Below, in pieces: positions 1-60,098 of a stretch of 64,000 nucleotides of DNA. The DNA comes from a virus (taxonomy: Duplodnaviria > Heunggongvirae > Uroviricota > Caudoviricetes), in IMG/VR virus record IMGVR_UViG_3300026484_000248, positions 34,711 through 98,710 of that record; one strand, written 5' to 3'. The notes below the pieces were generated by a model. That model was not told where the DNA came from. It saw only the letters and a list, made by a program, of their open reading frames with translations, and made no database searches. The translations under genes and the position numbers were made by a program. The number at the start of each line of letters is the position of its first letter. Position 1 is the first letter of the stretch.

Positions 1-283
1 TCCCATATCTGCAAATGGTGATATGGCACTAACAGCACCTGCCATCATAGGATTGTCTGTTCCATAGCTATTTTGTGAGCTATCCACTACTCCACCTTCG
101 GGCATCGGTAATACAAAACTTTTAAATGGTTGAGGAACGGCAGCAGGTAATGCTTCTGTTACAGATTTTGCCTTCATTATATCTGCTTCATATTCATAAG
201 CTATAAACATTATTGACGGTCTGATTCCACCACTTTGCGGCTCAGGTGTCAATAAATTAAGAGGATACATCATATCATAACTC
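1..283 (-). CDS. partial ORF (start ATG 281-283, C-terminus beyond window edge); unknown virion/baseplate-neighbourhood protein
   Basis: The open minus-strand frame begins MMYPLNLLTPEPQSGG and runs off the window; it lies immediately downstream of the tape-measure-like gene and was not in the ORF track because it is incomplete. Confidence 0.3.
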
Positions 284-295
284 CTTTTAGTTTAT

Positions 296-5524: not shown

Positions 5525-5574
5525 AACTTCCCCTATAATTTACAATTATTTATAAGGGAAGTAAAGTTTTAAAA

Positions 5575-6267: not shown

Positions 6268-6509
6268 TGTTTTCCTTTTATATTATATAGTAATTATACT
6301 TTAATCCCACTTAATTTATTAGCCAAAATATTTAACATAACTGTTTATCTATTTATTCTTATTCTGTTCTTCTATTGTTTTACTTAAAAGTCCAAAATAA
6401 ATATCTCGTTCAAAAGGCAACATATCGTCAACTTCTTGAATACTATAATGTCCAAAATACTTCATATTGCTGTAGTATTGATATAGACTAGATAAATTTG
6501 ACTCTACAG

Positions 6510-7205
6510 TTATGTCCACAAAAAATTTGGCAAGTGATCAAATTCAACATTATTTTCCTCGTTACATACCATGCAGTATGTTTTCAATTCAAATTCTAAA
6601 GAACTTTTCATCCCTTGAAACTCTTTATATACTTTATCAAAAATAAATGTGGGCATTTCTTCTACAAATTCCTGAAGTTCATCAAAACTGAAAGTATCTT
6701 CTACTTCTCCGTCTATAGTTATACTTTGTATATGAAGTAAAAATTCTGTAAAAGCGTAATCAATATTTGTTTCTTGGTTATCTAGCCTACTTCTTAGTCT
6801 TTCAGAAACTATATCACCAAATTTGAAAATCATATTTTCTACTTCTACATCTTTGTAATTATCAGGAGTATATTTAACAATTGAATCAAAATTTACATCT
6901 ATATCATTTACTTGTTTACATTTTGTACAAGCGTATCTCATTGGAAAAGTAGATCCAAGAGATTTTTTTCTTATTTCTATAATAAGCATTTTTTGTTCAT
7001 TTTGTGAAAGTACAATATCGGGGTTTTCAAGACAAGGTTTAATTAATAAATCAAAAAGCATAGTATCTGTTACTTTAGTTTCTGATTCAACCGCTATTAA
7101 ATAGTCTTTTTCATTTTTAGTAGTCCAAGGTTTAAATTTATATTCTTTATCGCCTATTGTTGCTGTGTTGTTATATTCAACTTTGTATTTTAAAGCCATT
7201 TTCAT
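6510..7205 (-). CDS. zinc-ribbon protein, paralog of 5575..6267
   Basis: It is paralogous to 5575..6267; a bidirectional late-promoter motif GTATAAATATTTATAAA lies upstream. Confidence 0.4.
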   Translation of the reverse strand: MKMALKYKVEYNNTATIGDKEYKFKPWTTKNEKDYLIAVESETKVTDTMLFDLLIKPCLENPDIVLSQNEQKMLIIEIRKKSLGSTFPMRYACTKCKQVNDIDVNFDSIVKYTPDNYKDVEVENMIFKFGDIVSERLRSRLDNQETNIDYAFTEFLLHIQSITIDGEVEDTFSFDELQEFVEEMPTFIFDKVYKEFQGMKSSLEFELKTYCMVCNEENNVEFDHLPNFLWT

Positions 7206-7244: not shown

Positions 7245-7826
7245 ATGTCAGGACCAAAGAGCACCGAAGCAAAATTAATGAATTGGCAAGATCCAAGTAA
7301 ATTTAGAATTTTTATGACAGGAGCTGGTGCGGATGCATTAGAACTTCCTGACCCGGAACTTTTAACTATGGCGTGTAATGGTGTAGAAATGGCAAGTATC
7401 GCTACAACACCTATAGAAGATTATACAGCAGAAGAGTGGAGATTTGCTTCAGGTAGAACAGAAGCTTATCAGATAGCCATAACTTTTAAAGACTTTAATA
7501 ACTTTGAACTATACAGAGCTTGGAGTACTTCTATTCAAAAGTTTCAGCGATGGTACCCAGCTTCTCAATATTTTAATTTAGAAATCCATACTGCCTCAGA
7601 CTTTAGTATAGAAAAATTTGAAAAAATTCTAGAATTTAAAAAGTGTATATTGACTAATGTTAGTGGTCCTACTCTAAGTAATGACGCTGTTGCAAGTGTT
7701 GCAGAATTTTCAGTTCAACTTAAATCTAGTTATGTTGAAATAGAAGGAGGTAGTGGATTCCTTAAAAATATGATGGGCGGCCTAGGTGTTGCAAGTGCTG
7801 TAAAAGCAGTAGCGGGGTTATTTTAA
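7245..7826 (+). CDS. putative tail/baseplate structural protein
   Basis: It has the RBS AAAGGAG, a late promoter, and is translationally coupled to the following tail tube gene (ATGGG overlap at 7826). Confidence 0.35.
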   Translation: MSGPKSTEAKLMNWQDPSKFRIFMTGAGADALELPDPELLTMACNGVEMASIATTPIEDYTAEEWRFASGRTEAYQIAITFKDFNNFELYRAWSTSIQKFQRWYPASQYFNLEIHTASDFSIEKFEKILEFKKCILTNVSGPTLSNDAVASVAEFSVQLKSSYVEIEGGSGFLKNMMGGLGVASAVKAVAGLF

Positions 7827-8344
7827 TGGGAGTTATTAATGAATTATTAGATACTTTAGGTATGGGCGCTAGGTCCAACAAATATATGGTTAATATTAAT
7901 GGACTAGGAAAAAAATTTGAAGTAGGAAAAATGGGAGATACTTTGGCTAAAAGTACAACTATTCCGGGTAGAAGTTTTAATGAAGTAAGTATATGGAATC
8001 AAGGGAGATTGACAACTATAGCAGGGGATCCTGATTACAGTGGAACTTGGTCAGTTACTTTTAGAGATACAGAAGAACACAAATTAAGAACAATTTTTAT
8101 AGATTGGATGGAATTCATCGGAACAGTTCAGAGAAACGCAAGAGAAGCAAACTCGCATAATGACTATATGACAACTTCACAAGTTAGCCAATTAAGTACA
8201 GTTGATAACAGCGTTACCGCTACTTACGAGTTCTATGATATATGGCCTAAAAGTATTTCTGATAGCTCACTGTCTGATGATGCACAAGATATGTTAGAGT
8301 TTACAGTAGAATTTAATTTTTCTAGTTGGAGTAAAATATGTTAG
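7826..8344 (+). CDS. tail tube protein, T4 gp19-like (paralog 1)
   Basis: The C-terminal block ATYEFYDIWPKSISDSSLSDDAQDMLEFTVEFNFSSW matches the conserved gp19 C-terminus (GLWPTNV..L.WD..N.IQTFEVTLALDYWE); it is about 45% identical to 10183..10707. Confidence 0.7.
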   Translation: MGVINELLDTLGMGARSNKYMVNINGLGKKFEVGKMGDTLAKSTTIPGRSFNEVSIWNQGRLTTIAGDPDYSGTWSVTFRDTEEHKLRTIFIDWMEFIGTVQRNAREANSHNDYMTTSQVSQLSTVDNSVTATYEFYDIWPKSISDSSLSDDAQDMLEFTVEFNFSSWSKIC

Positions 8345-10113
8345 TATTCTTTTAAGAATACTTTATTGCCTGAATCATAAATTTTTCTATAACCGTTGTT
8401 AAACATATTTATGGTTTCAGTAACATCTGGATTAAAGATTTCTAATAATCCTTTTAACTTATGTTTTTGGAACTTGTTTCTAGACCATAGTATGTTTTCT
8501 TTAGGATGGAAATAAAAATAGTTAGGTGTAGTATTATATTTAAAAGTAAAGCCTGATTTTATATAAAAATTACCTGTACTCCATCTTCTATTAGCGTAAG
8601 ATAAAAGACTTTTAGGTTTATATGTTTTCTCGAAGTACTTAAGCATTCTAGAACCTCCACCTTGTATAGTATAACCTTTTTTAGTGCAGAACCTAATAAG
8701 TTCATAATCTATATCTTTATTAAACCTAGGCTTACCAAAAGTCATTATAGACATTAGACTGTCTTCATAATACATCCCTATTTTTATAGAAGAGTTACAG
8801 TATCCCTGCATATGGTTGTCATCAATAAATCTTCTAGCTTCCTTAGTTGGTACTTCTTTTATACTGCATTTTCTAGCTCCTATTTTTTTATTTTTATTTA
8901 ATTTATCTTCTATCATAGAAACCCATATAGACTTTTTATTTTTATCTAACCATTCATTTTCAAATATATGAAATAGTTGTATTCCTTTTTCTTCCGCTAA
9001 CTCCGTCTTTCTAAGATGTTTATTTCTATGTTCTATAGGTTTATTAAACATTGAATGCTTAGAATGACCGAAGCTATGCCACATAAGACCGTTATATTCT
9101 ATAGCAAAATTATGTTCTTTGGAATATAAGTCTAATTCAAGTGGTTTTATTAGTTTTCTATCGTTAATAGTAAAAATATTATTAAATTCTATGTTAATTT
9201 CCTTCTCTTTAGAGAATTTACTTTTAAAAGGTATAGTTAAATCTTTCATTTTCTTATATACAAACGAAGTAGATCTTTTATAATCTACTTTAATAGATTC
9301 TATGTCTATTTTTTCATCCCTCAAATATCTCTCTATTATGATTCTTTTATTGAAAGGTTTCCAATTTATATAACCATCACCCGTACCATTTTTTTTATTT
9401 TTAATTTCTACTATCGCTGCTCTACCTTCCTCTGAGCCAAAATATGTAGTTGCACCATATTTTACTAGGTTATTCGCTGCTCTTTTCTGAGGATTATTAT
9501 AGTTCTCATCACCGTATCTTTCTAGTTTAGTTTTCTTAGCTTTTATAATACTTTCTTCGAGCATTGCAAAGTTTTTTACGCCATATTTTTCCATATTGTT
9601 TAGTTGAGTTTTTAAAGTTCTTTTATTATAGTCTACTTTACTTTTAACTTTGGGTTTTTCTTTGGCGATAGAACATTTTATTTTGCATTTATTATCGCAT
9701 TTATTTTTATAACCTTTCTTAAATGAAATAAAGCTATGTTCTTTTAAACATATCACGCAATATTTGGGTTGATATAAGAGATCGTACACTTCTTTAATTG
9801 AAATATTATACATTTTGACTTTCCTTGAAGAAATCCCTTTACTTTTAGTTAATACTAAATTGATATTTTCTTTAGTAATTTTTATCGATTTTTTCTCTAT
9901 GGCCATTCTGCACTTAGGCTCCCCACAAGTTACTCTGTATCCTTTTTTAAAAGAATTAAAAAGTACATTTTTACCACATACGCACTTAGGGGTACTGGTA
10001 CCGTGGTATATATTATATAGTTCTTTTGTTGTAGTATTAAATTTTTTGTTTACGCCAGGTTTAGGGTTGCCTAAGGAATTAAGTAGATGGTTGTGAATGA
10101 AATTTTTGTCCAT
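8341..10113 (-). CDS. free-standing homing-endonuclease-like protein (N-terminal Cys4 zinc-ribbon repeats + conserved C-terminal module)
   Basis: The track ORF is extended; the likely start is the internal MDKNFIHNHL. It has repeated PKCxCG..FxSFKxGY...C...C modules and KYG..NYNN repeats, and an E-Y-N-G-x-x-W-H motif reminiscent of Vsr/PD-(D/E)xK nucleases. The C-terminal 200 aa are nearly identical to 19646..21274 (ARKCSIKEVPTKEAR..NHMQGY..GGGSRMLKYFEK..SYANRRWSTGNFY). It is inserted between the two tail tube paralogs. Confidence 0.55.
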   Translation of the reverse strand: MDKNFIHNHLLNSLGNPKPGVNKKFNTTTKELYNIYHGTSTPKCVCGKNVLFNSFKKGYRVTCGEPKCRMAIEKKSIKITKENINLVLTKSKGISSRKVKMYNISIKEVYDLLYQPKYCVICLKEHSFISFKKGYKNKCDNKCKIKCSIAKEKPKVKSKVDYNKRTLKTQLNNMEKYGVKNFAMLEESIIKAKKTKLERYGDENYNNPQKRAANNLVKYGATTYFGSEEGRAAIVEIKNKKNGTGDGYINWKPFNKRIIIERYLRDEKIDIESIKVDYKRSTSFVYKKMKDLTIPFKSKFSKEKEINIEFNNIFTINDRKLIKPLELDLYSKEHNFAIEYNGLMWHSFGHSKHSMFNKPIEHRNKHLRKTELAEEKGIQLFHIFENEWLDKNKKSIWVSMIEDKLNKNKKIGARKCSIKEVPTKEARRFIDDNHMQGYCNSSIKIGMYYEDSLMSIMTFGKPRFNKDIDYELIRFCTKKGYTIQGGGSRMLKYFEKTYKPKSLLSYANRRWSTGNFYIKSGFTFKYNTTPNYFYFHPKENILWSRNKFQKHKLKGLLEIFNPDVTETINMFNNGYRKIYDSGNKVFLKEY

Positions 10114-10125
10114 TGTTTTCCTTTT

Positions 10126-10170
10126 TATATAAATAACTGTAAATATTGTACAATAATATTTATAATTATA
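10126..10170 (+). promoter_or_regulatory. late promoter region (TATAAATA at 10128-10135; TATAAT at 10161-10166) upstream of tail tube paralog 2
   Basis: The motifs lie directly upstream of the RBS GGAGG and the ATG at 10183. Confidence 0.4.
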
Positions 10171-10182
10171 GGAGGAATACAA

Positions 10183-10707
10183 ATGGGTGTATTAGAAGAA
10201 TTAAAAACAAGTCTTGCAATGGGTGCAAGAGGTAATAAGTATAAAATTATGTTAGCTGCTCCAGTAGGGCCACAAGATGATTTTTTAATAGATACTATAG
10301 GTAAAGGTGGAGCGATTCCAGCCAAAACAATAGGACAAATCGAAATTTGGACACAAGGAAGAAAATTAATTGTTGCAGGTGATGCAGCGTTTGAAAATGC
10401 TTGGAATTTGACTTTCTGGAATACACAAGATCATGCTCTTAGAACAGCGTTTGATAAGTGGATGTTATATATTGATGATATGGACAATCACAATAGAACG
10501 GCGACTGATCATGCTTCATATATGACAGAAGGAGCTCAAATCCAACAACTTAATACAGCCGATAATGCGGTTACGGCTACTTATAACTTTTATAACTTAT
10601 GGCCTACAGGTATTTCGGCAATTGATATGGCAGATGACCAACAAGATGCTATTACAGAATTTTCTGTAGACTTTGCTTACTCTCACTGGGTTAGAACAGA
10701 CGCATAA
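10183..10707 (+). CDS. tail tube protein, T4 gp19-like (paralog 2)
   Basis: The start is assigned at the internal ATG after the RBS GGAGG; the C-terminus ATYNFYNLWPTGISAIDMADDQQDAITEFSVDFAYSHWV closely matches the T4 gp19 C-terminal motif. Confidence 0.75.
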   Translation: MGVLEELKTSLAMGARGNKYKIMLAAPVGPQDDFLIDTIGKGGAIPAKTIGQIEIWTQGRKLIVAGDAAFENAWNLTFWNTQDHALRTAFDKWMLYIDDMDNHNRTATDHASYMTEGAQIQQLNTADNAVTATYNFYNLWPTGISAIDMADDQQDAITEFSVDFAYSHWVRTDA

Positions 10708-16746: not shown

Positions 16747-17355
16747 TTATTTGCCTTCTTTTTCTTTTTTATCTGAATCTTTTTCTTTTAACTTAAGTTT
16801 AGCCATCGCTTTACCTACTAATGTTCTGTATTCGTCTCTTGCCTCTGAACTACTGCCCCAATTAGTATCAAGTGATTCAACAGCTTCATCTTGAAATTTA
16901 AAAGCAAAATCCATAGCAGGAAGCAAATTTAAGTCCAGATTTTCTACACTATAACTTAATGTTATATGGGGTTTATAATCATCAAATTCCGAAATAAATT
17001 TATATTCTTGTACAAGCGCTTCATTTCGTTTAAGTAAATCTTGTGAATTTATTTCTGCAACTAATGCATCTTTATTTTCCCCAAATAGATTAAATTCTTT
17101 GAAAGTCCCTACTGCAGTATATTCAGCTGGTTCAATTTCCTCAACTTGTGGTTTCTTAGAATAAATTAAGCTGCAATGTAAATCCGTATTAATCTTTTGG
17201 CCTTTAAGATATTTTTCTTGATATTCTTTTACTGCCAGTTCAGTTTCCTCTGATAATTTAACCGATATATAAACCCCGTCCGGAAAATGAACCTCTTCAT
17301 GTTCTTCTCCGGTTTCTATATTATTTTCAGTAATATATTGTCTAAAGGTTACCAT
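16747..17355 (-). CDS. 2H phosphoesterase family protein (LigT / 2',3'-cyclic phosphodiesterase-like)
   Basis: It carries two H-x-T/S-x motifs (DLHCSLIY and KPHITLSY) with the spacing typical of the 2H superfamily. Confidence 0.5.
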   Translation of the reverse strand: MVTFRQYITENNIETGEEHEEVHFPDGVYISVKLSEETELAVKEYQEKYLKGQKINTDLHCSLIYSKKPQVEEIEPAEYTAVGTFKEFNLFGENKDALVAEINSQDLLKRNEALVQEYKFISEFDDYKPHITLSYSVENLDLNLLPAMDFAFKFQDEAVESLDTNWGSSSEARDEYRTLVGKAMAKLKLKEKDSDKKEKEGK

Positions 17356-17600
17356 TATAAATAGCCTTTATCGCCTGGTTTAAAATGTCCTTTGTTAATA
17401 TTTTTTTCCCAATAAGCTTTAATTTTATCATTAGTAGCTCTATCTGAAAGATTAAACCCTCTATTATTAGAATTTATTAATGATGAATAAGTAACATAAC
17501 CACTATACTTATCAGCATTTTTCAATATTTGCTCTAATTCCTCATCTGTTGGAACGGGTTTTTTTGATTTCTCACTTATGTATTCACTAAATTTTTGCAT
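17355..17600 (-). CDS. hypothetical small protein
   Basis: It is an 81-aa ORF with coupled start and stop codons. Confidence 0.35.
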   Translation of the reverse strand: MQKFSEYISEKSKKPVPTDEELEQILKNADKYSGYVTYSSLINSNNRGFNLSDRATNDKIKAYWEKNINKGHFKPGDKGYL

Positions 17601-17635
17601 TTTAATTCTCCTTTATTATTATTTATAGAAAGCTG

Positions 17636-18094
17636 TTACGAACAGCTTTCACAAATATAATTGTCTCCACCTTCTTTTTCTTGTTTTAAATAATAACTTG
17701 TTTTTACTCCTAATTTGAATCCATATAGATGCAATTGAGTTAATTCTAAAAGACTATCGGGTTTTGTGATATAAGTATTAATACTTTGCGCCTGGTCAAG
17801 CCATTTCTGCCTAACTGCTGCATTTTCAATTAAAATAAATTGATTACAACCAAAGCTTCTTTTGTAGAATCTATTATTTATTCTAAAATTTGGAACAAGA
17901 GTCGGTATTGTTTGGGTTCCTTCTTCTTTATAAAAGAAGTCGGCAATTGGTTCTATACTTTCTGTTGCATTACATGCTTTCCCACTTGTATTATGACTTA
18001 TACAACCATTACTTAGTGCATATTCATGCACTTCAGGAACCTTTATATCCCAAGTATGTTCTGTTAATCCATCTGTTATTTTTTTAATTTTCAT
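17636..18094 (-). CDS. nrdA: nrdA fragment 3: C-terminal intein-2 segment (about 35 aa, ..VHEYALSNGCISHN) fused to the NrdA C-terminal extein (TSGKACNATESIEP..HLYGFKLGVKTSYYL..CESCS)
   Basis: The extein aligns with the E. coli NrdA C-terminus (ESIEP, HFYGWKQGLKTGMYYL, terminal Cys pair); the intein blocks F/G end in HN followed by Thr +1; it is in the same frame as 18647..19630. Confidence 0.7.
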   Translation of the reverse strand: MKIKKITDGLTEHTWDIKVPEVHEYALSNGCISHNTSGKACNATESIEPIADFFYKEEGTQTIPTLVPNFRINNRFYKRSFGCNQFILIENAAVRQKWLDQAQSINTYITKPDSLLELTQLHLYGFKLGVKTSYYLKQEKEGGDNYICESCS

Positions 18095-18114
18095 ATATTT
18101 TCCTTTATTATACC

Positions 18115-18372
18115 TTATTGTTCTTGGGAGATTTCAACAATCTCCATATTTTCATCCAAGTCCGCGACTTGAACCCAACCCTCTGAACCATCTTTATATT
18201 TAACAAGTAATTTATGATTAAGTGTGAATTTATAAGAACTTCCATCTTCAAATTCAATTTCCCTAACAGGTTGTTTGCCATTATACCAGATTTTAGTTAC
18301 ATTTTTATCACCAAATCTCGTAGGAATAGTTATTCCCTTTTTTATATATTTACTAACTTTAATTACCTTCAT
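18115..18372 (-). CDS. Hint-domain (intein N-terminal splicing region)-like 85-aa ORF lying between nrdA fragments 2 and 3, in a different frame
   Basis: It has a block-B-like GSSYKFTLNHKLLV (G..h..T..H) and a GWVQVADLDENMEIV segment like intein 1 (GYVQAKELLKTDKL); it has its own RBS and ATG; it lacks an N-terminal Cys. Confidence 0.45.
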   Translation of the reverse strand: MKVIKVSKYIKKGITIPTRFGDKNVTKIWYNGKQPVREIEFEDGSSYKFTLNHKLLVKYKDGSEGWVQVADLDENMEIVEISQEQ

Positions 18373-18646
18373 ATTTTTCCTTTATAATATTTAATACTTC
18401 TTGACTTTTAAAAAATTATTCTCATTACTCCATATTTTAAAAATCTCAAAACTATTATCTTTCGCTAATTTTATTTTTTCATTTTGTATTTTTAAGATTT
18501 CTTCTGAACTTCTTTTACTTTAAGGACATTCCCATTCTTTTATATTTGGATGACAATGAATACATCATAATAATTATATTTAATCATTTTACGCCCACTT
18601 AACTTTATATCCATTTATAAAAATGAAGTAGTAGGCACAATTAAAA

Positions 18647-19630
18647 TCATATATATACTATATCCATACCTTCACAAATTTCCCCTGCTGTTATTTTTAC
18701 TTCTATATTATTTTTTAATATAGTTACTTCTTTATGAGTAGGTATATGCTTAATGTCTCCATTTTCTAAAACAATTCCTATATATTCGGTTTTAAAATCT
18801 AACCATTGTTGGGTTTCTTCATTCATTATTTTATTATAATCTATATTAAAATCATCCATAATATTTTGTAAGGATTTAATGCCTTCATTAGTTTTAATTT
18901 CAGTTTTCATTTCAGAACAGGCGGTTGGAGCTATGGCCATCAGAGCCGCATTTCTTAAACCAGTTACTTTAATTTTTTCTCTTAATTTGTTCCATCTGTC
19001 CATTTTAGGTAGATAATCAGTTAAATTAACTGTTTCTTTATTTGCTAAATCAATTGGTAAAATACCCTCAGCCCATTTTGTTTCGTAGAATTTTTCAAAT
19101 TTGCCTTTTTCCTCTGCTAATTCAGCACTAACTGAAATAATTATATAAGATAAATCATCAAATAATTTGTCTGTTTCTTCTAGTGCCTCTTGTGTATCAA
19201 TAATAATTTCTTTTAACGCTAAGTAATTTGCAAAGTTAAGAACTCCAATACCCAAATATCTATACATTAAGTTTGAATTTTTACCTTCTTTTACTGGATA
19301 GTTAGCAACATCTACAGTATTATCGAGTCCTCTTACAAGAGTTCTAATTAATTGCCATTTTTGTCCTTCATCCATATAAAACCATCTTTCAAGATTTACT
19401 GAACTAAGGTTACATAAAGCAATTTCACCTGCTGTATATCTTTTAACAATTCTTTTTTCTCCATTTTCCATTGTAAATAATTCTTCATTAATTAATTCCG
19501 ACGGTCGTGATGGAAGTACTATCTCTGTGCAGTTATGTACCAGTATATCATTTGCATAAAAATTATGGTTATCTTCTACAGTAATATCATATACAGGCAT
19601 TTCCTCTTCTAAATATTCTATTTTAATCAT
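18647..19630 (-). CDS. nrdA: nrdA fragment 2: C-intein-1 (MIKIEYLEEEMPVYDITVEDNHNFYANDILVHN) + middle extein (CTEIVLPS...LMAIAPTA, about 204 aa) + N-terminal piece of intein 2 (CSEMKTEIKT..., about 90 aa, ends TGA)
   Basis: The extein matches NrdA CLEIALPT..LCTLS.NL..LGIGV.NFA..GILPID..GLRN..ALMP; intein block F/G lies before the catalytic Cys; the start codon has an RBS. Confidence 0.75.
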   Translation of the reverse strand: MIKIEYLEEEMPVYDITVEDNHNFYANDILVHNCTEIVLPSRPSELINEELFTMENGEKRIVKRYTAGEIALCNLSSVNLERWFYMDEGQKWQLIRTLVRGLDNTVDVANYPVKEGKNSNLMYRYLGIGVLNFANYLALKEIIIDTQEALEETDKLFDDLSYIIISVSAELAEEKGKFEKFYETKWAEGILPIDLANKETVNLTDYLPKMDRWNKLREKIKVTGLRNAALMAIAPTACSEMKTEIKTNEGIKSLQNIMDDFNIDYNKIMNEETQQWLDFKTEYIGIVLENGDIKHIPTHKEVTILKNNIEVKITAGEICEGMDIVYI

Positions 19631-19645
19631 CTTTTTTCCTTTATT

Positions 19646-21274
19646 TTATTTATATTCTTTAACATAAACCTTGTTGCCTGAATCATATATTTTTCTATAA
19701 CCATTATTATGCATATTTTCTGCTTCAGTAACATCTGGATTAAAAGTTTCTAATAATCCTTTTAACTTATGTTTTTGGAACTTATTTCTAGACCATAGTA
19801 TGTTTTCTTTAGGATGGAAATAAAAATAGTTAGGTGTAGTATTATATTTAAAAGTGAAGCCTGATTTTATATAGAAATTACCTGTACTCCATCTTCTATT
19901 AGCGTAAGATAAAAGACTTTTAGGTTTATACGTTTTCTCGAAGTACTTAAGCATTCTAGAACCTCCACCTTGTATAGTATAACCTTTTTTAGTGCAGAAC
20001 CTAATAAGTTCATAATCTATATTTTTATTAAACCTAGGCTTACCAAAAGTCATTATAGACATTAGGTTGTCTTCATGATACATTCCTATTTTTATAGAAG
20101 AGTTGCAGTATCCCTGCATATGGTTATCATCAATAAATTTTCTAGCTTCCTTAGTTGGTACTTCTTTTATACTACATTTTCTAGCTCCTATTTTTTTATT
20201 TTTACTTAATTTATCTTCTATCATAGAAACCCATATAGATTTTTTATTTTTATCTAACCATTCATTTTCAAATATATGGAATAGTTGTATTCTTTTTTCT
20301 TCACAAGCTTCAGTTTTAATAAGATGGTAGTTTTTATTTTTAAATTTATTAGAATGCCAATATAAACCATTATATTCAATGGCAAAATTATATTCTTCAG
20401 AATACATATCTAATTCATAAGGTTTTATTATTTTTCTATTATCATATATAAATAAATCCTTAAATAGGGCCTTCATATTATCTGACACCTGTCTACCTAT
20501 TCTTGAAACACTAGAAGCATAAAAACTCATGTTTTTAAAAGCATTATAAGTGCAATTAAAATATTCACATGCAGTATAAATATCAAAATTTTTATTTAAT
20601 ACAAAGTGTTTAATTATAAATGTTTCATTAAAATTATTTAAATTATTAAAATGTTTTCTGGAAGAATTTTTATTTCCACTAAAATCTTTTTTAAAAGAAT
20701 CTAATTGAGCATAACTAGAAACACCATATTTTTCCATCATAGTATTATGAATTTTCTCTTTATTATTATAGTTTTTATCACCATATTTTTCTAATTTAGT
20801 TTTCTTGCTTTTTTCTATATTATTATAGTTTTTATCACCATATTTTTCTAATTTAGTTTTCTTGCTTTTTTCTATATTATTAATACTTGACTGATGGGTA
20901 TTATTAGATATCATAGTATCTTGTGCTTTTTTTCTTGATTCTTTAGACTGTGCTTTTTTAATCACCTTATTATGAATAGTCTTATCCTGAAAAACACTTA
21001 CATATCCGTACTTTTCTAACATTGTTTGTTGAGTCTTTTTAATTCTATTAAGTTTACTACATTCTTTACAAGTTTTATTATACCCTTTATTTAATGAAAT
21101 AAATCGTTTTTTATTGCCACAAGAACATAAACTATCATTATTATAAAAGTCCCATATGAACTTACTAGGTTCTTTCATATAATTTTTTTCTTCTAATGTA
21201 AAAGTGTGATTATTATATCTTCTGCTTTTTTTATTCCAAATAAGATCTATTTTTTCTTTTAATTCTTTTGTCAT
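19646..21274 (-). CDS. free-standing homing-endonuclease-like gene inserted inside nrdA intein 1 (same family as 8341..10113 and 57414..59135)
   Basis: It has N-terminal Cys4 zinc-ribbon modules, a 57-bp tandem in-frame duplication (KTKLEKYGDKNYNN x2), EYNGLYWHS, and a C-terminal module about 90% identical to 8341..10113; it is in the same frame as both flanking nrdA pieces but separated from them by TAA codons. Confidence 0.6.
   Translation of the reverse strand: MTKELKEKIDLIWNKKSRRYNNHTFTLEEKNYMKEPSKFIWDFYNNDSLCSCGNKKRFISLNKGYNKTCKECSKLNRIKKTQQTMLEKYGYVSVFQDKTIHNKVIKKAQSKESRKKAQDTMISNNTHQSSINNIEKSKKTKLEKYGDKNYNNIEKSKKTKLEKYGDKNYNNKEKIHNTMMEKYGVSSYAQLDSFKKDFSGNKNSSRKHFNNLNNFNETFIIKHFVLNKNFDIYTACEYFNCTYNAFKNMSFYASSVSRIGRQVSDNMKALFKDLFIYDNRKIIKPYELDMYSEEYNFAIEYNGLYWHSNKFKNKNYHLIKTEACEEKRIQLFHIFENEWLDKNKKSIWVSMIEDKLSKNKKIGARKCSIKEVPTKEARKFIDDNHMQGYCNSSIKIGMYHEDNLMSIMTFGKPRFNKNIDYELIRFCTKKGYTIQGGGSRMLKYFEKTYKPKSLLSYANRRWSTGNFYIKSGFTFKYNTTPNYFYFHPKENILWSRNKFQKHKLKGLLETFNPDVTEAENMHNNGYRKIYDSGNKVYVKEYK
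20764..20877. repeat. 57-bp tandem in-frame duplication inside endonuclease gene 19646..21274
   Basis: tattatagtttttatcaccatatttttctaatttagttttcttgcttttttctatat is repeated twice and encodes IEKSKKTKLEKYGDKNYNN x2. Confidence 0.8.
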
Positions 21275-21322
21275 TCTTTTGATATCCTGGCAATTATTTT
21301 ATATTTTACTAACTTTGGGCAT

Positions 21323-23014
21323 TTATTCTTTTATATTTAATTTATCTGTTTTAAGCAATTCTTTTGCTTGGACATAACCCCTATTTTCAGTCCATATTTT
21401 ATGTTCGGGAGTACAAACAATATTTTTACCCGTTTTTTCATCAATAATTTTCATTACTCTTGTTTTGGGGTTTGTCATAGCAAAATCTGTAACTATTTTA
21501 TATTCAACTTTTTTAAGTTTTGTATTATATGATTTCACTTTGTCGCCTATTTTAATGTCCTTAAGTTCTTTTGTCCCTTTTTCGGTTTGTACTTTAGTAT
21601 CACCTTTTAAACATAAATTTGAACTACCAATATATCTATTAAGCATTGAAGTGTTATTAACATTTTCTTCATGGAACAAATATATATTACCAGTTTCTGT
21701 TCTTTCTTTCATCATCTTTTCCCAAAGATCTCTCGCTTTAATTTTTTTCTTTTTGATATTTGTTTTATTACTGTACATTTCATAATTTTTATTAAATTCT
21801 TCTCCAAATACACCAACCAATAACGGAGTATCTTTAGGGTCAAATAACCACACTTCTTCATCCATTTCAACTGCATCCAGAAAGTTTTGATTCATTTTCA
21901 TTGCATATTGTAAACCTCTTGCCCTATTTTCATCAGTACCACCATTACTTTTAAGTGATAAAATATCAGTAACATCTAAATGCCACCAAGAGAAGTAAAT
22001 TGCAAGGGCACCTTGCCTTTTCCCGCCTTGATTCCAAGCTTTCATAATACTTTCAAAGAATTTCATAAATGGTACAGGCCCAGAACTATAACCTTGAGTT
22101 CCTTCAATATAACTTCCCCCAGCTCTCATCGCTGTAATATCTAATGCTGTTCCACCTTTAAATTTTGAATAAATTCCCAGGTTTTTACCAGTATCTAAAA
22201 TATTATGACTATCATCTGCTAAAGTATTTAATACACAAGAACTTAATTGCTGCCCAGGAGTTAAAGCATTTAACATAATTGGAGTAGCAACAGTATATTG
22301 ATGTTGTGAAATAGCATCATATAATTCAATCATTTTTTGAACTCTGTTATCCTTTTCGTCAATAGTAAGTGCAATAGCAACTCTCATATAAGATATTTGG
22401 GGTAATTCTAATTTATTTCTTTTACTATAATTAAGACAATACTTATCAAAAAATGTTACAAGTGCTTTATAATTAAAAATTAAATCTCTTTCAGGGTTAA
22501 TTGCAGTATTTAATTGCTGTATTTCATCTTCAGTTAGTTTATTAACTGTAAATTTATCGTAAATTTTCTTTTCAATCCCTTTAGTGAGGATATCTTTTAA
22601 TTCTGGATAAGTATTATGGTCACTTATGTTATAAGTTTCTTTATAATATTCAAGTAATTGTAATTTTGCCGCTACTTCTTCCCACATTGGATTAAGCATA
22701 CTGATTTTATTAACTGCAGTAATGATTAATTGCTTGTACATATCTTTAATATGAATTTCTTTATGTAATTTAACCTTAGTATCTCTGAGTAATTCCTCTT
22801 TCATATATTGATTTGGGCAAGACCAATCAACTACTTTATCTAATTTCTTTGGATGGAAAGGTTCTTTATGTCCTTTCCTTTTTATAATAATTATTTTTGA
22901 TGCTTTTATTTCTTCTTGATTTGAAATATCAATATTTTCCTTATTTTCTACTGCCTGAGACAAAGTGCCTAAAGGCACTTTGTTATATCTTTTTGCTTTA
23001 TTCTTATTACTCAC
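21323..23014 (-). CDS. nrdA: nrdA fragment 1: class I ribonucleotide reductase alpha N-terminal extein (about 467 aa, ends ...IGSSNL) fused to the N-terminal half of intein 1 (CLKGDTKVQT...GKNIVCTPEHKIW..., 96 aa)
   Basis: It has the ATP-cone and RNR large-subunit motifs; SNL is followed by an intein block A (CLKGDTKV) and block B (TPEH) and then a TAA stop; the following catalytic Cys (CTEI) lies in the next fragment. Confidence 0.8.
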   Translation of the reverse strand: MSNKNKAKRYNKVPLGTLSQAVENKENIDISNQEEIKASKIIIIKRKGHKEPFHPKKLDKVVDWSCPNQYMKEELLRDTKVKLHKEIHIKDMYKQLIITAVNKISMLNPMWEEVAAKLQLLEYYKETYNISDHNTYPELKDILTKGIEKKIYDKFTVNKLTEDEIQQLNTAINPERDLIFNYKALVTFFDKYCLNYSKRNKLELPQISYMRVAIALTIDEKDNRVQKMIELYDAISQHQYTVATPIMLNALTPGQQLSSCVLNTLADDSHNILDTGKNLGIYSKFKGGTALDITAMRAGGSYIEGTQGYSSGPVPFMKFFESIMKAWNQGGKRQGALAIYFSWWHLDVTDILSLKSNGGTDENRARGLQYAMKMNQNFLDAVEMDEEVWLFDPKDTPLLVGVFGEEFNKNYEMYSNKTNIKKKKIKARDLWEKMMKERTETGNIYLFHEENVNNTSMLNRYIGSSNLCLKGDTKVQTEKGTKELKDIKIGDKVKSYNTKLKKVEYKIVTDFAMTNPKTRVMKIIDEKTGKNIVCTPEHKIWTENRGYVQAKELLKTDKLNIKE

Positions 23015-24133
23015 TTATAATCCTTTTGCTCTTGTATATGATTCTAATTTACCGTCTGGTATATCATTTTTCATAATACCGATTGAATAAATTGACATAT
23101 CTGATTCTTGTTGCGCTACATTAGATATATTTAAATCCTTTTCGCCTTCAAAATATTGAACTGTATCTGTTTTAATAATATTAAATGGTTTTGCTACACC
23201 TATTGATGATAGTCTATCATCAACATAATATTTCATAAAATCTTCTACAACTCTTTTAGTCAATGTTGGTATATCACCAAAACTTGCTAAATAATCATAA
23301 AACTCTAATTCATCTCTAAGTACATCCAAAAATGTTTTAGTTGCCATATTACTAAACCATTTAGAATTAATTAACTCACTAAATCCTTCTGATTTTGTTT
23401 TTTTGAGTATTTGAATTGTTCCCGATACCATACTTGTATGAATATCTTCATCAAAATTAATTAATTTAATGATTCTTGTAGCACCTTGGATTTTATTATT
23501 ATAATTATTGTTAATAACATAAGTTACCAAAAATGATACATAAAATTTAACACCTTCAAGTGCTAATATACCAACAAGTAATTCTAAAATTATTTTTTTC
23601 TTTTCAGTTTCATCGCTAATACTATCAATATTTTTAACTCTTTTATATAATTCAATTTCATTATTTACTCTTTTTTGAATTTCCGGATAATCAGCAATTC
23701 TATCAAATATTGCTGAAGCATCACTAAAAATACCTCTTAATATATGAGAGTAAGATAAACTATGAATTAATTCAAAATAGCCCTGTGTCTTAAACATCGC
23801 TTCAAACTCAGGATTTGTGCATAAACTAGCTAATATTTCTTCAAGTCCACTATTTTGAGCAGAGTCCATTAATGTTTGAAATAACCAAACCCTAATCATA
23901 ATTTCCTGAATGTATTCAGGCATTTCAAAAAATTTAAGTGCATCATTTGTCATACTTATTTCTTTTGGATTCCAAAAAGCATTTCTTTGTTTTTCTTCCA
24001 TCGCTACTGCAAATGGAAATTTCGGATTATCGTATCTTTGGAAACCTGAATAGGAACCGAAAAATATTCTTTCCTTTGCATTCTTTGGTACTAAATTTTC
24101 AGTGCAAAGAATTCGTTCACATGAACTGCCCAT
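23015..24133 (-). CDS. nrdB: ribonucleotide reductase small subunit (NrdB)
   Basis: The protein shows IFFG...RYD, the ferritin-like di-iron motifs (E..H, FYVSF, EDIHT) and collinearity with E. coli NrdB. Confidence 0.8.
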   Translation of the reverse strand: MGSSCERILCTENLVPKNAKERIFFGSYSGFQRYDNPKFPFAVAMEEKQRNAFWNPKEISMTNDALKFFEMPEYIQEIMIRVWLFQTLMDSAQNSGLEEILASLCTNPEFEAMFKTQGYFELIHSLSYSHILRGIFSDASAIFDRIADYPEIQKRVNNEIELYKRVKNIDSISDETEKKKIILELLVGILALEGVKFYVSFLVTYVINNNYNNKIQGATRIIKLINFDEDIHTSMVSGTIQILKKTKSEGFSELINSKWFSNMATKTFLDVLRDELEFYDYLASFGDIPTLTKRVVEDFMKYYVDDRLSSIGVAKPFNIIKTDTVQYFEGEKDLNISNVAQQESDMSIYSIGIMKNDIPDGKLESYTRAKGL

Positions 24134-24576: not shown

Positions 24577-25860
24577 TTACTTAATTACTTCAATAAGTGT
24601 TCTAACACCAAAACCTGTTGCACCTTTAACATTACTACCAAAACCTTTATCTACAAAACTAGGCCCTGCAATATCAATATGAATAAATTTATTTTTATTT
24701 TTCTTTTTAACCGCTTCTGTTAGAAATAATCCTGCTTTTTGACAACCCATTGTAGGAGTTCCTGTATTACTTAAATCAGCAACATCATCTTTCACACCAT
24801 CTAACATATATTTATGGAAAGGAGCATCTAAAAATATTTCACCTTGTTTATCTCCAGCTTTTTGAATTTTTCTTTTTAATTTATTGTTAAAAGAAACTAA
24901 TCCTGCTGCTTCATTTCCAAATTGAGCCACTGCACTTCCGGTTAATGTTGCTATTGAAGTCATTGTATCAAACTTTTTATTTTGTTCTTGTGCTAAACAG
25001 ATATTATCAAAAAGTACTAATCTTCCTTCTGCATCTGTGTTATTAATTTTAACAGTTTTGCCGTTTTTCATTGTAAGAATATCGCCTGGTCTGTAAGCAT
25101 TTTCATTAATCATATTTTCTGCTAATGCAATATAACAAATAACTTCTGAATTCCCACCATTTAATCTTAGGTATTCCATTAAACCAATAAGGGTCATTGC
25201 TCCTGCTTTATCTGCTTGCATTTTTACCATTGAGTTTGTTGGTTTTATTGAAAGTCCTCCTGAATCATATGTTAAACCTTTTCCAACAAAAATATGTCTT
25301 TTTGTATTTTGGTCTTGATTTTCTGGAGTATAAGTCATTTTAATTGTCATTGCTTCTTGATTACTTGCAGCATTTACCGCTAAATGACCATTCATATTTA
25401 ATTGTTCTAATTTATCTTTTCCATATAATTCAATAGTAATGCCGGAATTAACAAAAATATCTAAAACTAAATCTAAAACATATTCAGCATTTGCAATATT
25501 TGGTGGTGTGTTTACTAAATCTCTTGTAAGGTATTGTGCTTTAATAATATTTCTAGCATTTGCTAATTCAATTGCATTAGCATTATATTCAATTTCTATT
25601 TTTTTATAGTTATCTTTTTTCTTAATACTGTATTGATAATCACCTAAAATAGTTCCTTCAATAAATGCTTGTGAACCGTTCGGAATAGTCATTTCTATTT
25701 TTTTAATTTTTTCATTAATACAAAATTGAGTTACTTTAAATCCAAGAACTCGCCAATCTTCATCTGTTTTAGTATCTTTTGTTCCGACTACAAGGAACAA
25801 ACCTTGTTTTTTTATTCCTGTCTTGTTTTTTTTAAATTCAGTTATAAGTACTTTTTTCAT
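24577..25860 (-). CDS. pepA: M17 leucyl aminopeptidase (PepA-like)
   Basis: The NTDAEGRLVLFD signature of cytosol aminopeptidases is present; the length is 427 aa; the start overlaps the ClpP stop codon. Confidence 0.75.
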   Translation of the reverse strand: MKKVLITEFKKNKTGIKKQGLFLVVGTKDTKTDEDWRVLGFKVTQFCINEKIKKIEMTIPNGSQAFIEGTILGDYQYSIKKKDNYKKIEIEYNANAIELANARNIIKAQYLTRDLVNTPPNIANAEYVLDLVLDIFVNSGITIELYGKDKLEQLNMNGHLAVNAASNQEAMTIKMTYTPENQDQNTKRHIFVGKGLTYDSGGLSIKPTNSMVKMQADKAGAMTLIGLMEYLRLNGGNSEVICYIALAENMINENAYRPGDILTMKNGKTVKINNTDAEGRLVLFDNICLAQEQNKKFDTMTSIATLTGSAVAQFGNEAAGLVSFNNKLKRKIQKAGDKQGEIFLDAPFHKYMLDGVKDDVADLSNTGTPTMGCQKAGLFLTEAVKKKNKNKFIHIDIAGPSFVDKGFGSNVKGATGFGVRTLIEVIK

Positions 25861-26441
25861 TAAGAACCCACAATCATATCAATTAAACCAATTTCCATTG
25901 CTTCTTCAGGGCTTAAAAATTTATCTCTATCTGTTAATACACAGATTTCTTCATAAGAAGTTTTGCCTTTTGTATATTCCGACATTTGTCTCATAAGTTT
26001 TTCTTGTAAATATTTTGACTCATTATAATCAATTTCCATATCTTGGAATTTACCTTGTGTTCCGCCTGCTAATGAATGAATCATAATTCTCGCGTTTGGC
26101 ATAGCACTTCTTGTACCTGTTCCTGCTGCTAGGATTTGATTTCCCATACTCATTGCAATGCCAGTACAAATTGTATTAACTGGAGTTTTAATATGACGCA
26201 TAACATCAATAATTCCGTTACCAGCATAAATACTTCCGCCACCACTTGAGATGTACATATTGATTTCTTTGCAGTCTTCTTTACTATCTAAGTATAATAA
26301 TTGTGCTTTAATTGTTGTTGCTAAATCATCACCAATACCATTTTCCAAAATGACAATATTTTCCTCAAATAGCTTGTCTATCATTGTATATTGTCTATCA
26401 CTTCTTCCGTCTTTTTCTGCCACATTTGGTAAAAATATCAT
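25860..26441 (-). CDS. clpP: ClpP-family serine protease subunit
   Basis: YISSGGGSIYAGNGIIDVMRHIKTPVNTICTGIAMSMGNQIL..ARIMIHSLAGG aligns with the ClpP catalytic Ser/His region (INSPGG..AG..IYD....TIC.G.AASMG...MIHQP.GG). Confidence 0.75.
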   Translation of the reverse strand: MIFLPNVAEKDGRSDRQYTMIDKLFEENIVILENGIGDDLATTIKAQLLYLDSKEDCKEINMYISSGGGSIYAGNGIIDVMRHIKTPVNTICTGIAMSMGNQILAAGTGTRSAMPNARIMIHSLAGGTQGKFQDMEIDYNESKYLQEKLMRQMSEYTKGKTSYEEICVLTDRDKFLSPEEAMEIGLIDMIVGS

Positions 26442-60010: not shown

Positions 60011-60098
60011 TATTAAGCAAAAATTCAAAGCTTTTGGTGTAGGTTATATTATCAACCATAAAAATGCAACAGTCACAAAACAATACATAGAAAACTAC

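Follow-up and report, generated by a model that had tools for sequence, protein, structure and literature searches.

The fractured nrdA locus

The window, by which we mean the whole 64,000-nucleotide stretch of DNA that was analysed, comes from an uncultured myovirus-like phage, in which nrdA is carried as three extein-bearing genes and one free-standing intein gene on a single strand. The coding sequence of nrdA is distributed over three separately terminated ORFs on the minus strand, namely fragment 1 (21323..23014, 563 aa), fragment 2 (18647..19630, 327 aa) and fragment 3 (17636..18094, 152 aa). The exteins and the adjoining nrdB are located as follows:

23015..24133, minus strand: nrdB, small subunit of RNR, directly upstream of nrdA (Pfam Ribonuc_red_sm, E 1e-40)
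21614..23014, minus strand: nrdA extein 1, 467 aa, ending ..IGSSNL (Pfam; continuous alignment with solved NrdA structures)
18920..19531, minus strand: nrdA extein 2, 204 aa, CTEIVLPS..LMAIAPTA, starting at the thiyl-radical Cys
17636..17989, minus strand: nrdA extein 3, 117 aa, TSGKACNATESIEP..CESCS and stop (Pfam Ribonuc_red_lgC positions 461-523; alignment with solved NrdA)

Fragment 1, whose extein comprises the ATP-cone, the all-alpha domain and the first part of the barrel, continues from ..IGSSNL into a 96-aa N-intein and ends with TAA. Fragment 2 opens with its own RBS and ATG, reads MIKIEYLEEEMPVYDITVEDNHNFYANDILVHN directly into CTEIVLPS, proceeds to LMAIAPTA and then into CSEMKTEIKT, and closes with TGA; fragment 3 reads MKIKKITDGLTEHTWDIKVPEVHEYALSNGCISHN directly into TSGKACNATESIEP...CESCS. 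All of the sequence features that the original prediction had named for a nrdA in three ORFs were found on the minus strand; its list missed an 85-aa ORF (18115..18372) and an endonuclease relic (18359..18587), both described below. The predicted junctions SNL/C and PTA/TS hold: joined at SSNL/CTEIV (intein 1) and APTA/TSG (intein 2), the exteins give 788 aa whose alignment with solved NrdA structures covers the full length and is gap-free at both junctions. The nrdA gene contains two inteins, both split, as had been predicted. At both sites all catalytic intein residues are kept (Cys1, block-B His, terminal HN, and +1 Cys or Thr), and each nrdA or intein piece is preceded by a strong RBS of its own.

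The stops are not sequencing errors, since the same region was found in six independent assemblies (ENA ERZ27262648, ERZ27262631 and ERZ27262656; Logan SRR7968107 and SRR7968125; JGI 3300026512), in which the sequence around the fragment 2 stop and the 85-aa ORF stop recurs with a DNA identity of 99.2-100%; the whole locus, including the fragment 1 stop and its endonuclease, is spanned only by the 117-kb ERZ27262648 contig. The same layout is present in a second lineage, about 75-79% identical in DNA to the window and with both interrupting endonucleases intact, which was pieced together from L027 and L008, two non-overlapping contigs of one assembly. In the extein and intein pieces of the window lineage and of the L027/L008 lineage, no stop or frameshift was found.

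Intein 1, a two-piece split intein with its endonuclease

Intein 1 is a conventional split intein in two pieces, of the NrdJ-1/gp41-1 type, and its halves flank an intact endonuclease gene:

21323..21613, minus strand: intein 1 N-piece, 96 aa, CLKGDTKV..CTPEH..NIKE and TAA (Pfam Hint, PT-HINT)
19646..21274, minus strand: free-standing Hef-type homing endonuclease, 542 aa, own ATG, within intein 1 (PHROG 3339)
19532..19630, minus strand: intein 1 C-piece, 33 aa, MIKIEYLEEEMPVYDITVEDNHNFYANDILVHN, own RBS and ATG (Pfam Intein_splicing positions 124-155)

The split-intein similarity that had been expected is borne out, the joined N- and C-pieces matching the NrdJ-1 intein (8ubs, E 8e-14) and gp41-1 (6qaz, E 3.5e-13) as their nearest solved relatives. 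The endonuclease matches PHROG 3339 'homing endonuclease' at E 1e-118 and is about 40% identical to Campylobacter phage Hef genes; Hef-type enzymes have been placed in the Vsr-like/EDxHD family (PMC3239194).

The arrangement is the known fractured-gene type (Dassa et al. 2009, PMC2677866), the study from which NrdJ-1 and gp41-1 themselves come. Intein 1 directly precedes the thiyl-radical Cys, at the site also used in the seven GOS NrdA loci (NrdA-1 to NrdA-7), and there as here a free-standing endonuclease stands between the halves, with the genes on one strand, and supplies the stop and start signals; endonuclease-less derivatives are also known in both. A hairpin bearing a TATAAATA-like element upstream of an endonuclease start is common to both as well, here at the relic within intein 2; RNA fold analysis found no such hairpin upstream of the intein 1 endonuclease. 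The window differs from the GOS loci in that the intein 1 endonuclease is a large Hef-type protein, and in that a second split intein, itself broken twice, occupies another site in the same gene. The locus does sit, together with its endonuclease, in a phage genome that is contiguous; this is less special than had been implied, as split inteins at both nrdA sites, with or without endonucleases, are found on several IMG/VR phage contigs.

Intein 2 and the 85-aa ORF

Intein 2 belongs to a phage-restricted mini-intein family, whose profile matches Npu DnaE intein structures at E about 1e-6; the AlphaFold model of one family member, P0007 (pLDDT 83), finds inteins only among its structural matches. 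The family is contiguous in L004 and in the Campylobacter Fletchervirus phages L001 and L002, two-piece with an endonuclease in L003, L009, L010 and L013, and two-piece without one in L011 and L021. In the window its parts are arranged as follows:

18785..18919, minus strand: intein 2 N-piece, block-A half, residues 1-45, CSEMKTEIKTNEG..QQWLDFKTE (family HMM)
18647..18784, minus strand: intein 2 N-piece, divergent 45-residue tail, YIGIVLENGDIKHIPTHKEVTILKNNIEVKITAGEICEGMDIVYI and TGA (weak HMM match)
18589..18640, minus strand: RNA hairpin, loop containing UUUAUAAAU, just 5' of the relic HE_A start codon
18359..18587, minus strand: pseudogene relic of endonuclease HE_A (tblastn, DNA alignment, three-frame translation)
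18115..18372, minus strand: intein 2 middle piece, a free-standing 85-aa ORF with its own RBS AAAGGA and ATG (Pfam, family HMM)
17990..18094, minus strand: intein 2 C-piece, 35 aa, MKIKKITDGLTEHTWDIKVPEVHEYALSNGCISHN, own RBS and ATG (aligns with the C-pieces of nine relatives)

Fragment 2 carries 90 aa of intein after APTA. Residues 1-45 match family HMM positions 1-45 (42.9 bits, dN/dS 0.05); the tail weakly matches positions 68-112 (7.9 bits), skipping positions 46-67, and is put at the same place by MAFFT. It ends where the canonical N-pieces of the family end, and is 68% identical to that of L027 with a dN/dS of 0.35 (Fisher p 0.013). An alignment-guided AlphaFold model of the N-piece (pLDDT 84) gives the tail five block-B-like beta strands at pLDDT 85-92, and against N-inteins the model of this piece alone yields no significant superposition (E 0.23, TM 0.35).

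Intein 2 had been taken for a simple two-piece split, which does not hold, as block B and a 22-residue hairpin sit in the separate 85-aa ORF. Comparison with the contiguous and two-piece relatives shows that this ORF contains the true middle of the intein, with its beta-hairpin and block B (TLNHKLLV); it runs from a MKVIKVSKYIKKG head through the hairpin ITIPTRFGDKNVTKIWYNGKQP and block B (FTLNHKLLV) to the N-lobe end ..DENMEIVEISQEQ, matching Pfam Intein_splicing positions 35-92 and family HMM positions 42-114 (113.9 bits), and by our reading of the alignments it retains 17 of the 17 family-invariant residues within its range. Between the window and the second lineage its dN/dS is 0.28 (p 2e-4), its RBS and ATG are conserved, and the probability that it would stay open after 25% random substitutions is 0.02. 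The C-piece (dN/dS 0.11) has its ATG 20 nt past the middle-piece stop. Only when N(1-42), M(12-85) and C were joined was the Pfam Intein_splicing gathering score reached (36.9 against 35.8 bits); N and C joined without M gave no match in Pfam. The tail end and the M head have net charges of -2 and +5, and the M end and the C head of -6 and +1; in intein 1 the polarity is reversed.

Between the N-piece and the 85-aa ORF lies the HE_A relic, about 230 nt long, in which the start (MIKYN..) is followed by a large internal deletion and then by the final ~60 codons, which contain in-frame stops and a frameshift; it matches the intact HE_A of L008 in tblastn at E 1e-20. HE_A shares homology with the endonucleases that occupy the family's canonical split site, and its 3' end, which in the relic overlaps the start of the 85-aa ORF, overlaps MK(V)IK just as the canonical-site endonucleases overlap MKIKKI. 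The hairpin upstream of the relic is of the kind that PMC2677866 describes; its fold z is -2.2 for the window and -4.0 for L027, and its stem changes preserve pairing.

Purifying selection acts on the 85-aa ORF in both lineages, whereas the endonucleases are decaying or missing; within the same span of divergence the window's HE_A was reduced to a relic. Since dS is lower in the tail, M and C than in the exteins, the tail/M/C cassette may have spread horizontally, and the conservation of the exteins is therefore not strictly later than the insertion.

Discussion

Anatomy, homology, junctions and recurrence in a diverged lineage are shown, and purifying selection acts on every piece. From these we infer, with a probability of roughly 0.6, that intein 2 is naturally split into three pieces (N/M/C), that splicing takes place and that the M-piece is required; the three-piece layout was seen in two lineages only. 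Intein 2 would have been broken twice by free-standing endonuclease genes, once between blocks B and F, which is the canonical site, and once inside the N-lobe, in the first strand of the long beta-hairpin. The N-piece would then consist of extein 2, block A and the divergent tail, the M-piece of the 85-aa ORF with the hairpin and invariant block B, and the C-piece of blocks F and G followed by extein 3. The three pieces would assemble non-covalently into one Hint fold and ligate extein 2 to extein 3, so that mature NrdA would be produced via two protein trans-splicing reactions; judged from sequence, the earlier expectation that active NrdA should require two such events is supported. The N-piece tail and the M-piece head (MKVIKV..) resemble flanking sequence that the invading endonuclease brought from a canonical split site, and they probably form a second docking interface, a negative strand against a positive one. 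That one complex would then contain two block-B-like segments counts against this three-piece reading.

A different pairing would have the N-piece as a chimera, in which block A is joined to a foreign block-B half, and would pair it directly with the C-piece, leaving the 85-aa protein outside the catalyst as a leftover, a competitor or a regulator that, for example, holds the C-piece until the right time. The tail does stop exactly at the canonical N-piece end, its His aligns with the block-B His, its ..EGMDIV.. end resembles family members, and its conservation and predicted strands fit such a half. N and C together total 125 aa, and the gp41-1 intein is about 125 aa in size. We nevertheless consider this pairing doubtful: by our own count the tail agrees with the family at only about 4 of 10 invariant positions, and it misses the T and N of TxNHKLLV, the N-piece lacks the 22-residue hairpin found in every compared family member, and Pfam recognises the joined three pieces as an intein but not N and C. 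Moreover, a dispensable 85-aa protein with the surface of a C-piece partner would act as an inhibitor, and therefore should be lost; yet it is conserved while HE_A decayed.

Alternatively, one or both sites may not splice, the NrdA pieces being held together non-covalently by intein- or element-derived sequence. The precedent is Aeromonas phage Aeh1 nrdA/mobE (Friedrich et al. 2007; Crona et al. 2011, PMC3045599), where, as here, endonuclease invasion led to separately translated pieces and mobile-element-derived sequences assist their assembly; a passage of PMC2677866 cites the Aeh1 NrdA split by mobE as active without an intein. In Aeh1, however, there is no intein, and the pieces remain separate and assemble non-covalently, whereas in the window the catalytic intein residues are retained, the intein pieces show dN/dS of 0.02-0.11, as for working catalysts, and the insertions lie in active-site segments (SNL/C.E, APTA/TS) where ~130-210 extra residues would be hard to tolerate. 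This makes loss of splicing improbable.

A shade more improbable still is that nrdA is degenerating into a pseudogene that propagates selfish elements, as Dwivedi et al. (2013) read the highly interrupted nrdA genes of Campylobacter phages. The window does hold many endonuclease genes, and the L027 protein is one residue short after the catalytic Cys (CEIVLPS), but extein 2 has a dN/dS of 0.09 over 203 codons against L027, the pieces are free of stops and frameshifts in both lineages, strong RBSs precede them and an intact nrdB adjoins. Removal of the N/M interruption from RNA, as a group I intron with an endonuclease ORF, or its translational bypass, giving a normal two-piece intein, is the least credible, for although such homing endonucleases also occupy group I introns of phage genes (PMC2677866), Rfam gives no match to any family, intron or other, at E<=1 in window positions 17500..23200, L008 or L027, substitutions in the tail and in the M-piece head follow a coding pattern, and the M-piece has a conserved RBS and ATG of its own.

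Two inteins in a single phage nrdA have been reported before. The contiguous relatives, including those of Fletchervirus, are of the same family and at the same insertion site as intein 2; being contiguous, they therefore splice in cis. In Fletchervirus the N and C parts of nrdA lie ~65 kb apart, without an intein at that break.

The three-piece reading of intein 2 has its precedent in synthetic inteins, which work: Ssp DnaB S1/S0 (Sun et al. 2004), Rma DnaB, Npu DnaE and gp41-1 (Weis et al. 2023, 10.1101/2023.01.30.526203). In these, as in the window, N, M and C are on separate polypeptides, the M-piece has no extein, and the extra break interrupts the N-terminal fragment, either between beta strands or within one. 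The window differs from the designs in two additions that they lack, a divergent block-B-like tail on the N-piece and a C-intein-like head on the M-piece. The same preprint (10.1101/2023.01.30.526203) states that inteins of more than two pieces have not been shown in nature, and the literature we searched reports none from there; three-piece split inteins have been engineered in the laboratory, and intein 2 of this phage nrdA would be a natural one.

The nrdA locus and its junctions

The nrdA gene lies on the minus strand with nrdB directly upstream and, as the original prediction held, is encoded as three separately terminated ORFs (fragments 1, 2 and 3). An ORF listing and direct reading of the sequence bear out the features described for them, and an AAAGGA-type ribosome binding site stands ahead of each downstream piece. 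In the motifs below, a slash marks a splice junction.

Features of the nrdA locus, read from the ORF listing and directly from the sequence (window positions)
21323..23014, minus strand: fragment 1, 563 aa, with 467 aa of NrdA to ..IGSSNL and a 96-aa N-intein (CLKGDTKV..CTPEH..NIKE), ending in TAA
19646..21274, minus strand: Hef-type endonuclease ORF, 542 aa, own ATG
18647..19630, minus strand: fragment 2, 327 aa, with a 33-aa C-intein (..NHNFYANDILVHN), a 204-aa extein (CTEIVLPS..LMAIAPTA) and 90 aa from CSEMKTEIKT, ending in TGA
18115..18372, minus strand: M-piece ORF, 85 aa, own ribosome binding site, between fragments 2 and 3
17636..18094, minus strand: fragment 3, 152 aa, with a 35-aa C-intein (MKIKKITDG..NGCISHN) and a 117-aa extein (TSGKACNATESIEP..CESCS)

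The joined exteins form a protein of 788 aa that aligns over its full length to solved NrdA (Aquifex 7agj, E 9e-114; E. coli R1), with no gap at SSNL/CTEIV or APTA/TSG against either structure. Removal of the elements at both sites thus leaves a continuous conserved host protein, and the junctions proposed earlier, SNL/C and PTA/TS, are correct. The nearest exteins belong to intein-less Vibrio phage NrdA (~71% identity); megablast of the locus against phage records returned no close cultured relative. An Aeh1-type NrdA, in pieces without inteins, does not describe this gene, as intein motifs flank both breaks.

Sequencing error, the case that the original prediction named against itself, is ruled out, as is assembly error. 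The stretch that runs from the last part of fragment 2 into fragment 3, 85-aa ORF included, recurs at 99.2-100% DNA identity in contigs of six independent assemblies, one of which spans the whole locus (117-kb contig), so the stops are real; the sole length difference among these near-identical contigs is one 19-aa repeat unit in the endonuclease, and a diverged lineage has the same layout. Near the locus, a 202-aa ORF downstream of nrdA (16747..17355, minus strand) has a precomputed Pfam match to Acb1 (PF23474), an anti-CBASS phosphodiesterase family, and an M17 leucyl aminopeptidase-like gene (427 aa) and a ClpP-like protease gene (193 aa) adjoin the nrd genes at 24577..26441 (minus strand).

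Intein 1 and its Hef-type endonuclease

Intein 1, at SSNL/CTEIV, is of class 1 (Hint fold), as judged by a Cys or Ser at position 1, a block B TxxH, a block F Asp and a C-terminal HN followed by Cys, Ser or Thr: it carries C1 (CLKGDTKV), CTPEH, VYDITVED and ..ILVHN/C. Its joined halves match the solved inteins NrdJ-1 (8ubs, E 8e-14) and gp41-1 (6qaz, E 3.5e-13), which are split inteins of the "fractured genes" of Dassa et al. 2009 (PMC2677866). As in those genes, an intact endonuclease gene, here of Hef type (19646..21274), lies within the intein; it has a 15-nt spacer to the downstream start and no stable hairpin. This arrangement is already known, and by sequence and layout intein 1 is a putative split intein, predicted to splice in trans.

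The 542-aa protein falls in PHROG 3339, "homing endonuclease" (E 1e-118), and is ~40% identical by tblastn to Campylobacter phage genes annotated Hef. Hef-type enzymes have been placed in the Vsr-like/EDxHD family (PMC3239194), to which the protein would belong through its Hef membership only; when solved structures were searched by sequence, no nuclease came up. Its C-terminal region (residues 393-475) has weak sequence similarity to a GNAT-fold acetyltransferase (2bsw, E 0.0014). The Hef homologue of Campylobacter phage CPt10 lies outside nrdA. A 19-aa unit, IEKSKKTKLEKYGDKNYNN, occurs twice in the endonuclease (20740..20860, minus strand), and an otherwise identical contig (L005) encodes a 523-aa endonuclease, 19 aa less, consistent with a single copy; this looks like copy-number variation within the population.

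In the second lineage (contig L027, 165..1145, protein P0003), the C-extein after intein 1 starts CEIVLPS, versus CTEIVLPS in the window. Either the C-x-E active-site spacing is broken there, or intein 1 is shifted by one residue towards the C-terminus, to the insertion point that Dassa 2009 describes for the NrdJ type (PMC2677866). Fragment 1 of this lineage was not found.

Intein 2 appears to be encoded in three pieces

The original prediction of two split inteins stands in part: the second, at APTA/TSG, has to be extended by the 85-aa ORF, which had been missed. Its meaning is clear from contiguous relatives. Campylobacter Fletchervirus phages and an IMG/VR contig (L004) carry a contiguous mini-intein of ~150 aa exactly at APTA/TSG, whose first ~45 residues match the piece on fragment 2, whose end matches the C-intein of fragment 3, and whose middle (..IPTRFGDK..IWYNGKQP..FTLNHKLLV..MEIV..) matches the 85-aa ORF; Pfam places this ORF on Intein_splicing positions 35-92. 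We refer to the 90 aa on fragment 2 (a block-A half and a 45-residue tail), the 85-aa ORF (head MKVIKVSKYIKKG) and the 35 aa on fragment 3 as the N-, M- and C-piece; each has its own ribosome binding site and ATG.

On a family HMM built from ten loci, N-piece residues 1-45 cover positions 1-45 (42.9 bits) and residues 10-82 of the 85-aa ORF cover positions 42-114 (113.9 bits). The 45-residue tail that closes the N-piece gives a weak match (7.9 bits) to positions 68-112 and skips a 22-residue hairpin (positions 46-67); MAFFT gives the tail the same placement. By manual count, 17 of 17 family-invariant residues are kept in the range of the 85-aa ORF and ~4 of 10 in the tail. Three pieces, each predicted to be translated separately, thus together cover one Hint domain, with an extra block-B-like tail on the N-piece, and the class 1 motifs are spread over three ORFs: C1 on the N-piece, TLNH on the M-piece and ..CISHN/T on the C-piece. 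Joined as N(1-42)+M(12-85)+C, the pieces are recognised by Pfam as an intein above the gathering score (36.9 bits); N and C joined give no Pfam intein match.

The family profile matches Npu DnaE intein structures (E 1e-6), and it is needed for this, since a contiguous member alone finds no match among solved structures by sequence search. The AlphaFold model of one contiguous member, P0007 (pLDDT 83), has inteins as its only structural matches, and in it the break between N- and M-piece sits inside the first strand of a long beta-hairpin. P0007 is a JGI protein (190 aa, 2.3-kb contig) with an upstream flank (MIRINNTMNPVKSAYA/C..) unlike NrdA and a downstream flank (TSGKSINAIESIEPIHDFF) that is NrdA-like; it may be what is left of a truncated or decaying nrdA that has kept its intein.

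Proposed endonuclease invasions at intein 2

The 274 nt from the N-piece stop to the M-piece start hold a hairpin with UUUAUAAAU in its loop, then ATG and MIKYN.., and the last ~60 codons of an endonuclease (HE_A), decayed by in-frame stops and a frameshift. In a diverged relative (assembly GCA_029935855.1, contigs L027 and L008) HE_A is intact. L027 runs from C-intein 1 through extein 2 and the N-piece with its tail to the same hairpin, whose stem changes keep pairing, and the endonuclease start. L008 holds the rest of HE_A (at least 419 aa) and an M-piece of 81 aa whose ATG overlaps the HE_A end; next come another endonuclease gene, of HNH type (HE_B), and a 58-aa ORF, then the C-piece with extein 3. 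The two contigs are probably linked, as they come from one assembly, are collinear with the window and have diverged equally. Both breaks of intein 2 are occupied in L008; in the window, the first holds the relic and the second has no endonuclease.

The fractured genes of Dassa 2009 have two further traits: the 3' end of the endonuclease provides the downstream start or runs over it, and the endonuclease start is preceded by a hairpin bearing a late-promoter-like TATAAATA. The picture here is mixed. HE_A and its relic overlap the M-piece ATG with their 3' end, and the upstream hairpin is kept in the window and L027, but the Hef gene of intein 1 has neither trait. In other phages, the endonucleases that occupy the canonical split site of this intein are homologous to HE_A; the 3' end of HE_A overlaps MK(V)IK, as the canonical-site endonucleases overlap the C-piece start MKIKKI, and the N-piece tail ends where a canonical N-piece ends. 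These features lead us to propose that HE_A brought along short flanking stretches of a donor split intein when it inserted ectopically in the N-lobe, in keeping with the Dassa model, where the upstream stop and downstream start come from the invading element (PMC2677866).

Three contigs from different samples (L024, L025 and L026) start at window positions 18669, 18606 and 18591, so that all three begin close to the N-piece stop and hairpin (~80 nt or less). The assembly graph thus seems to branch there, possibly from population variants that differ upstream, for instance with an intact HE_A.

Neither a tail donor nor a further M-piece locus was found beyond the two lineages by word-indexed protein search with the N-piece, by degenerate DNA patterns in viral and genome collections, or with HE_A in viral contigs. 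A full HMMER scan to the same end returned P0003 only, and a search for the intein 2 family in bacterial and archaeal genomes gave no further M-piece locus; the free-standing M-piece occurs in two lineages only in all collections searched.

Selection on the pieces

dN/dS, window against L027/L008 (75-79% nucleotide identity)
C-intein 1: 0.02
Extein 2: 0.09
N-piece block-A half: 0.05
N-piece tail: 0.35 (Fisher p 0.013)
M-piece: 0.28 (Fisher p 2e-4)
Intein 2 C-piece: 0.11

After 25% random substitution, the ORF would stay open in 2% of cases for the M-piece and 17% for the tail. Across the same divergence HE_A has decayed to a relic in the window, and the second break holds an endonuclease in one lineage and is empty in the other. 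Selection thus keeps the intein pieces, the free-standing one included, while endonucleases come and go.

Proposed mechanism and alternatives

Beyond the observed anatomy, homology, junctions and selection, we infer that NrdA matures by two trans-splicing reactions, the second involving three polypeptides and ligating extein 2 to extein 3, with ..MAIAPTATSGKAC.. as the predicted junction peptide. The M-piece would be required for splicing, as two indirect signs suggest: it is under purifying selection, and N+C shows no intein signature. Splicing from three pieces is chemically feasible, since it works in engineered forms of Ssp DnaB (Sun et al. 2004), of Rma DnaB, and of Npu DnaE and gp41-1 (10.1101/2023.01.30.526203). 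The charges (tail end -2 versus M head +5; M end -6 versus C head +1) would suit two serial docking interfaces, and the pattern recurs in ordinary members of the intein 2 family. In intein 1 the polarity is reversed, a difference that would tend to limit cross-reaction between the two inteins.

The main alternative is that the tail could make the N-piece self-sufficient, with no need of the M-piece. AlphaFold, guided by the family alignment, does build the tail as block-B-like strands, but the model of the N-piece on fragment 2 alone has no significant superposition on N-inteins and no significant global fold match. In the three-piece reading, the conserved tail so modelled could be a docking module. 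A degenerating nrdA, a reading that exists for some Campylobacter phage nrdA genes (Dwivedi et al. 2013), is argued against by the purifying selection on the intein pieces. RNA-level repair of the interruption between N and M is unlikely, as no Rfam family, group I intron or other, matches the window region, L008 or L027 at E<=1. A nested intein, in which tail and head re-join N and M, is ruled out, as the tail is without block A and the head without block F/G or HN/C, S or T.

On balance, we give slightly better than even odds, roughly 0.55, that intein 2 is the first natural three-piece split intein: that two successive homing-endonuclease invasions cut it, that its N-, M- and C-pieces must all assemble for NrdA ligation, and that its N-M interface reuses sequence which flanked the endonuclease at its former site, namely the last part of a donor N-intein and the first part of a donor C-intein.

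Other interrupted nrdA genes and endonucleases

The phage genome is riddled with homing endonuclease elements, with further genes at 8341..10182 (minus strand), 57525..59111 (plus), 60072..60896 (plus) and 52279..52977 (minus). One Hef-type paralogue, 59% identical to the nrdA copy, sits between a pair of tail-tube-like genes that resemble each other (7826..8344 and 10087..10707), on the opposite strand. Also present are a third Hef-type copy and two genes of HNH type, similar to HE_B of L008.

In Fletchervirus phages (NCTC12673 and F207; NC_015464, 128140..129390), the N- and C-terminal parts of nrdA lie ~65 kb apart. The C part starts near ..GEIALCNL, contains the contiguous mini-intein and has two Hef genes upstream. 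Intein motifs are absent at the break, and together with the ~65-kb separation this makes it a dislocated gene in pieces. Two IMG/VR contigs (Ga0257141_1000096 and Ga0265593_1001130, 1..7008) carry an nrdA that is apparently interrupted three times: by a split intein at ..VHT/C..N/CNL with a 341-aa endonuclease, by a break with a 146-aa endonuclease-like ORF, and by a split intein at APN/../TSS with a 471-aa endonuclease.

Novelty and implications

Two inteins in one phage nrdA have been reported before (IBB_35), and in several IMG/VR contigs a single nrdA has two of the split kind. As far as could be determined, the three-piece state of intein 2 is without precedent: a full-text literature search of incomplete coverage returned no natural intein in more than two pieces. 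A 2023 preprint asks whether such inteins exist and notes that none had been shown, partly since short fragments are hard to recognise (10.1101/2023.01.30.526203). The locus is a concrete, testable natural candidate: its middle piece of 85 aa is defined, a second lineage allows comparison, and relatives with the intein contiguous or in two pieces can serve as controls.

If the three-piece reading is true, nature reached the same three-input splicing device that protein engineers build by hand, and a natural N/M/C intein beside a possibly orthogonal intein in the same gene would be available for multi-input ligation tools. The gene-breaking model of split-intein evolution would extend to repeated invasion of one intein, and endonuclease flanks would be reusable as protein docking modules. 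Strong purifying selection is possible in heavily interrupted phage nrdA genes, which are sometimes dismissed as degenerating.
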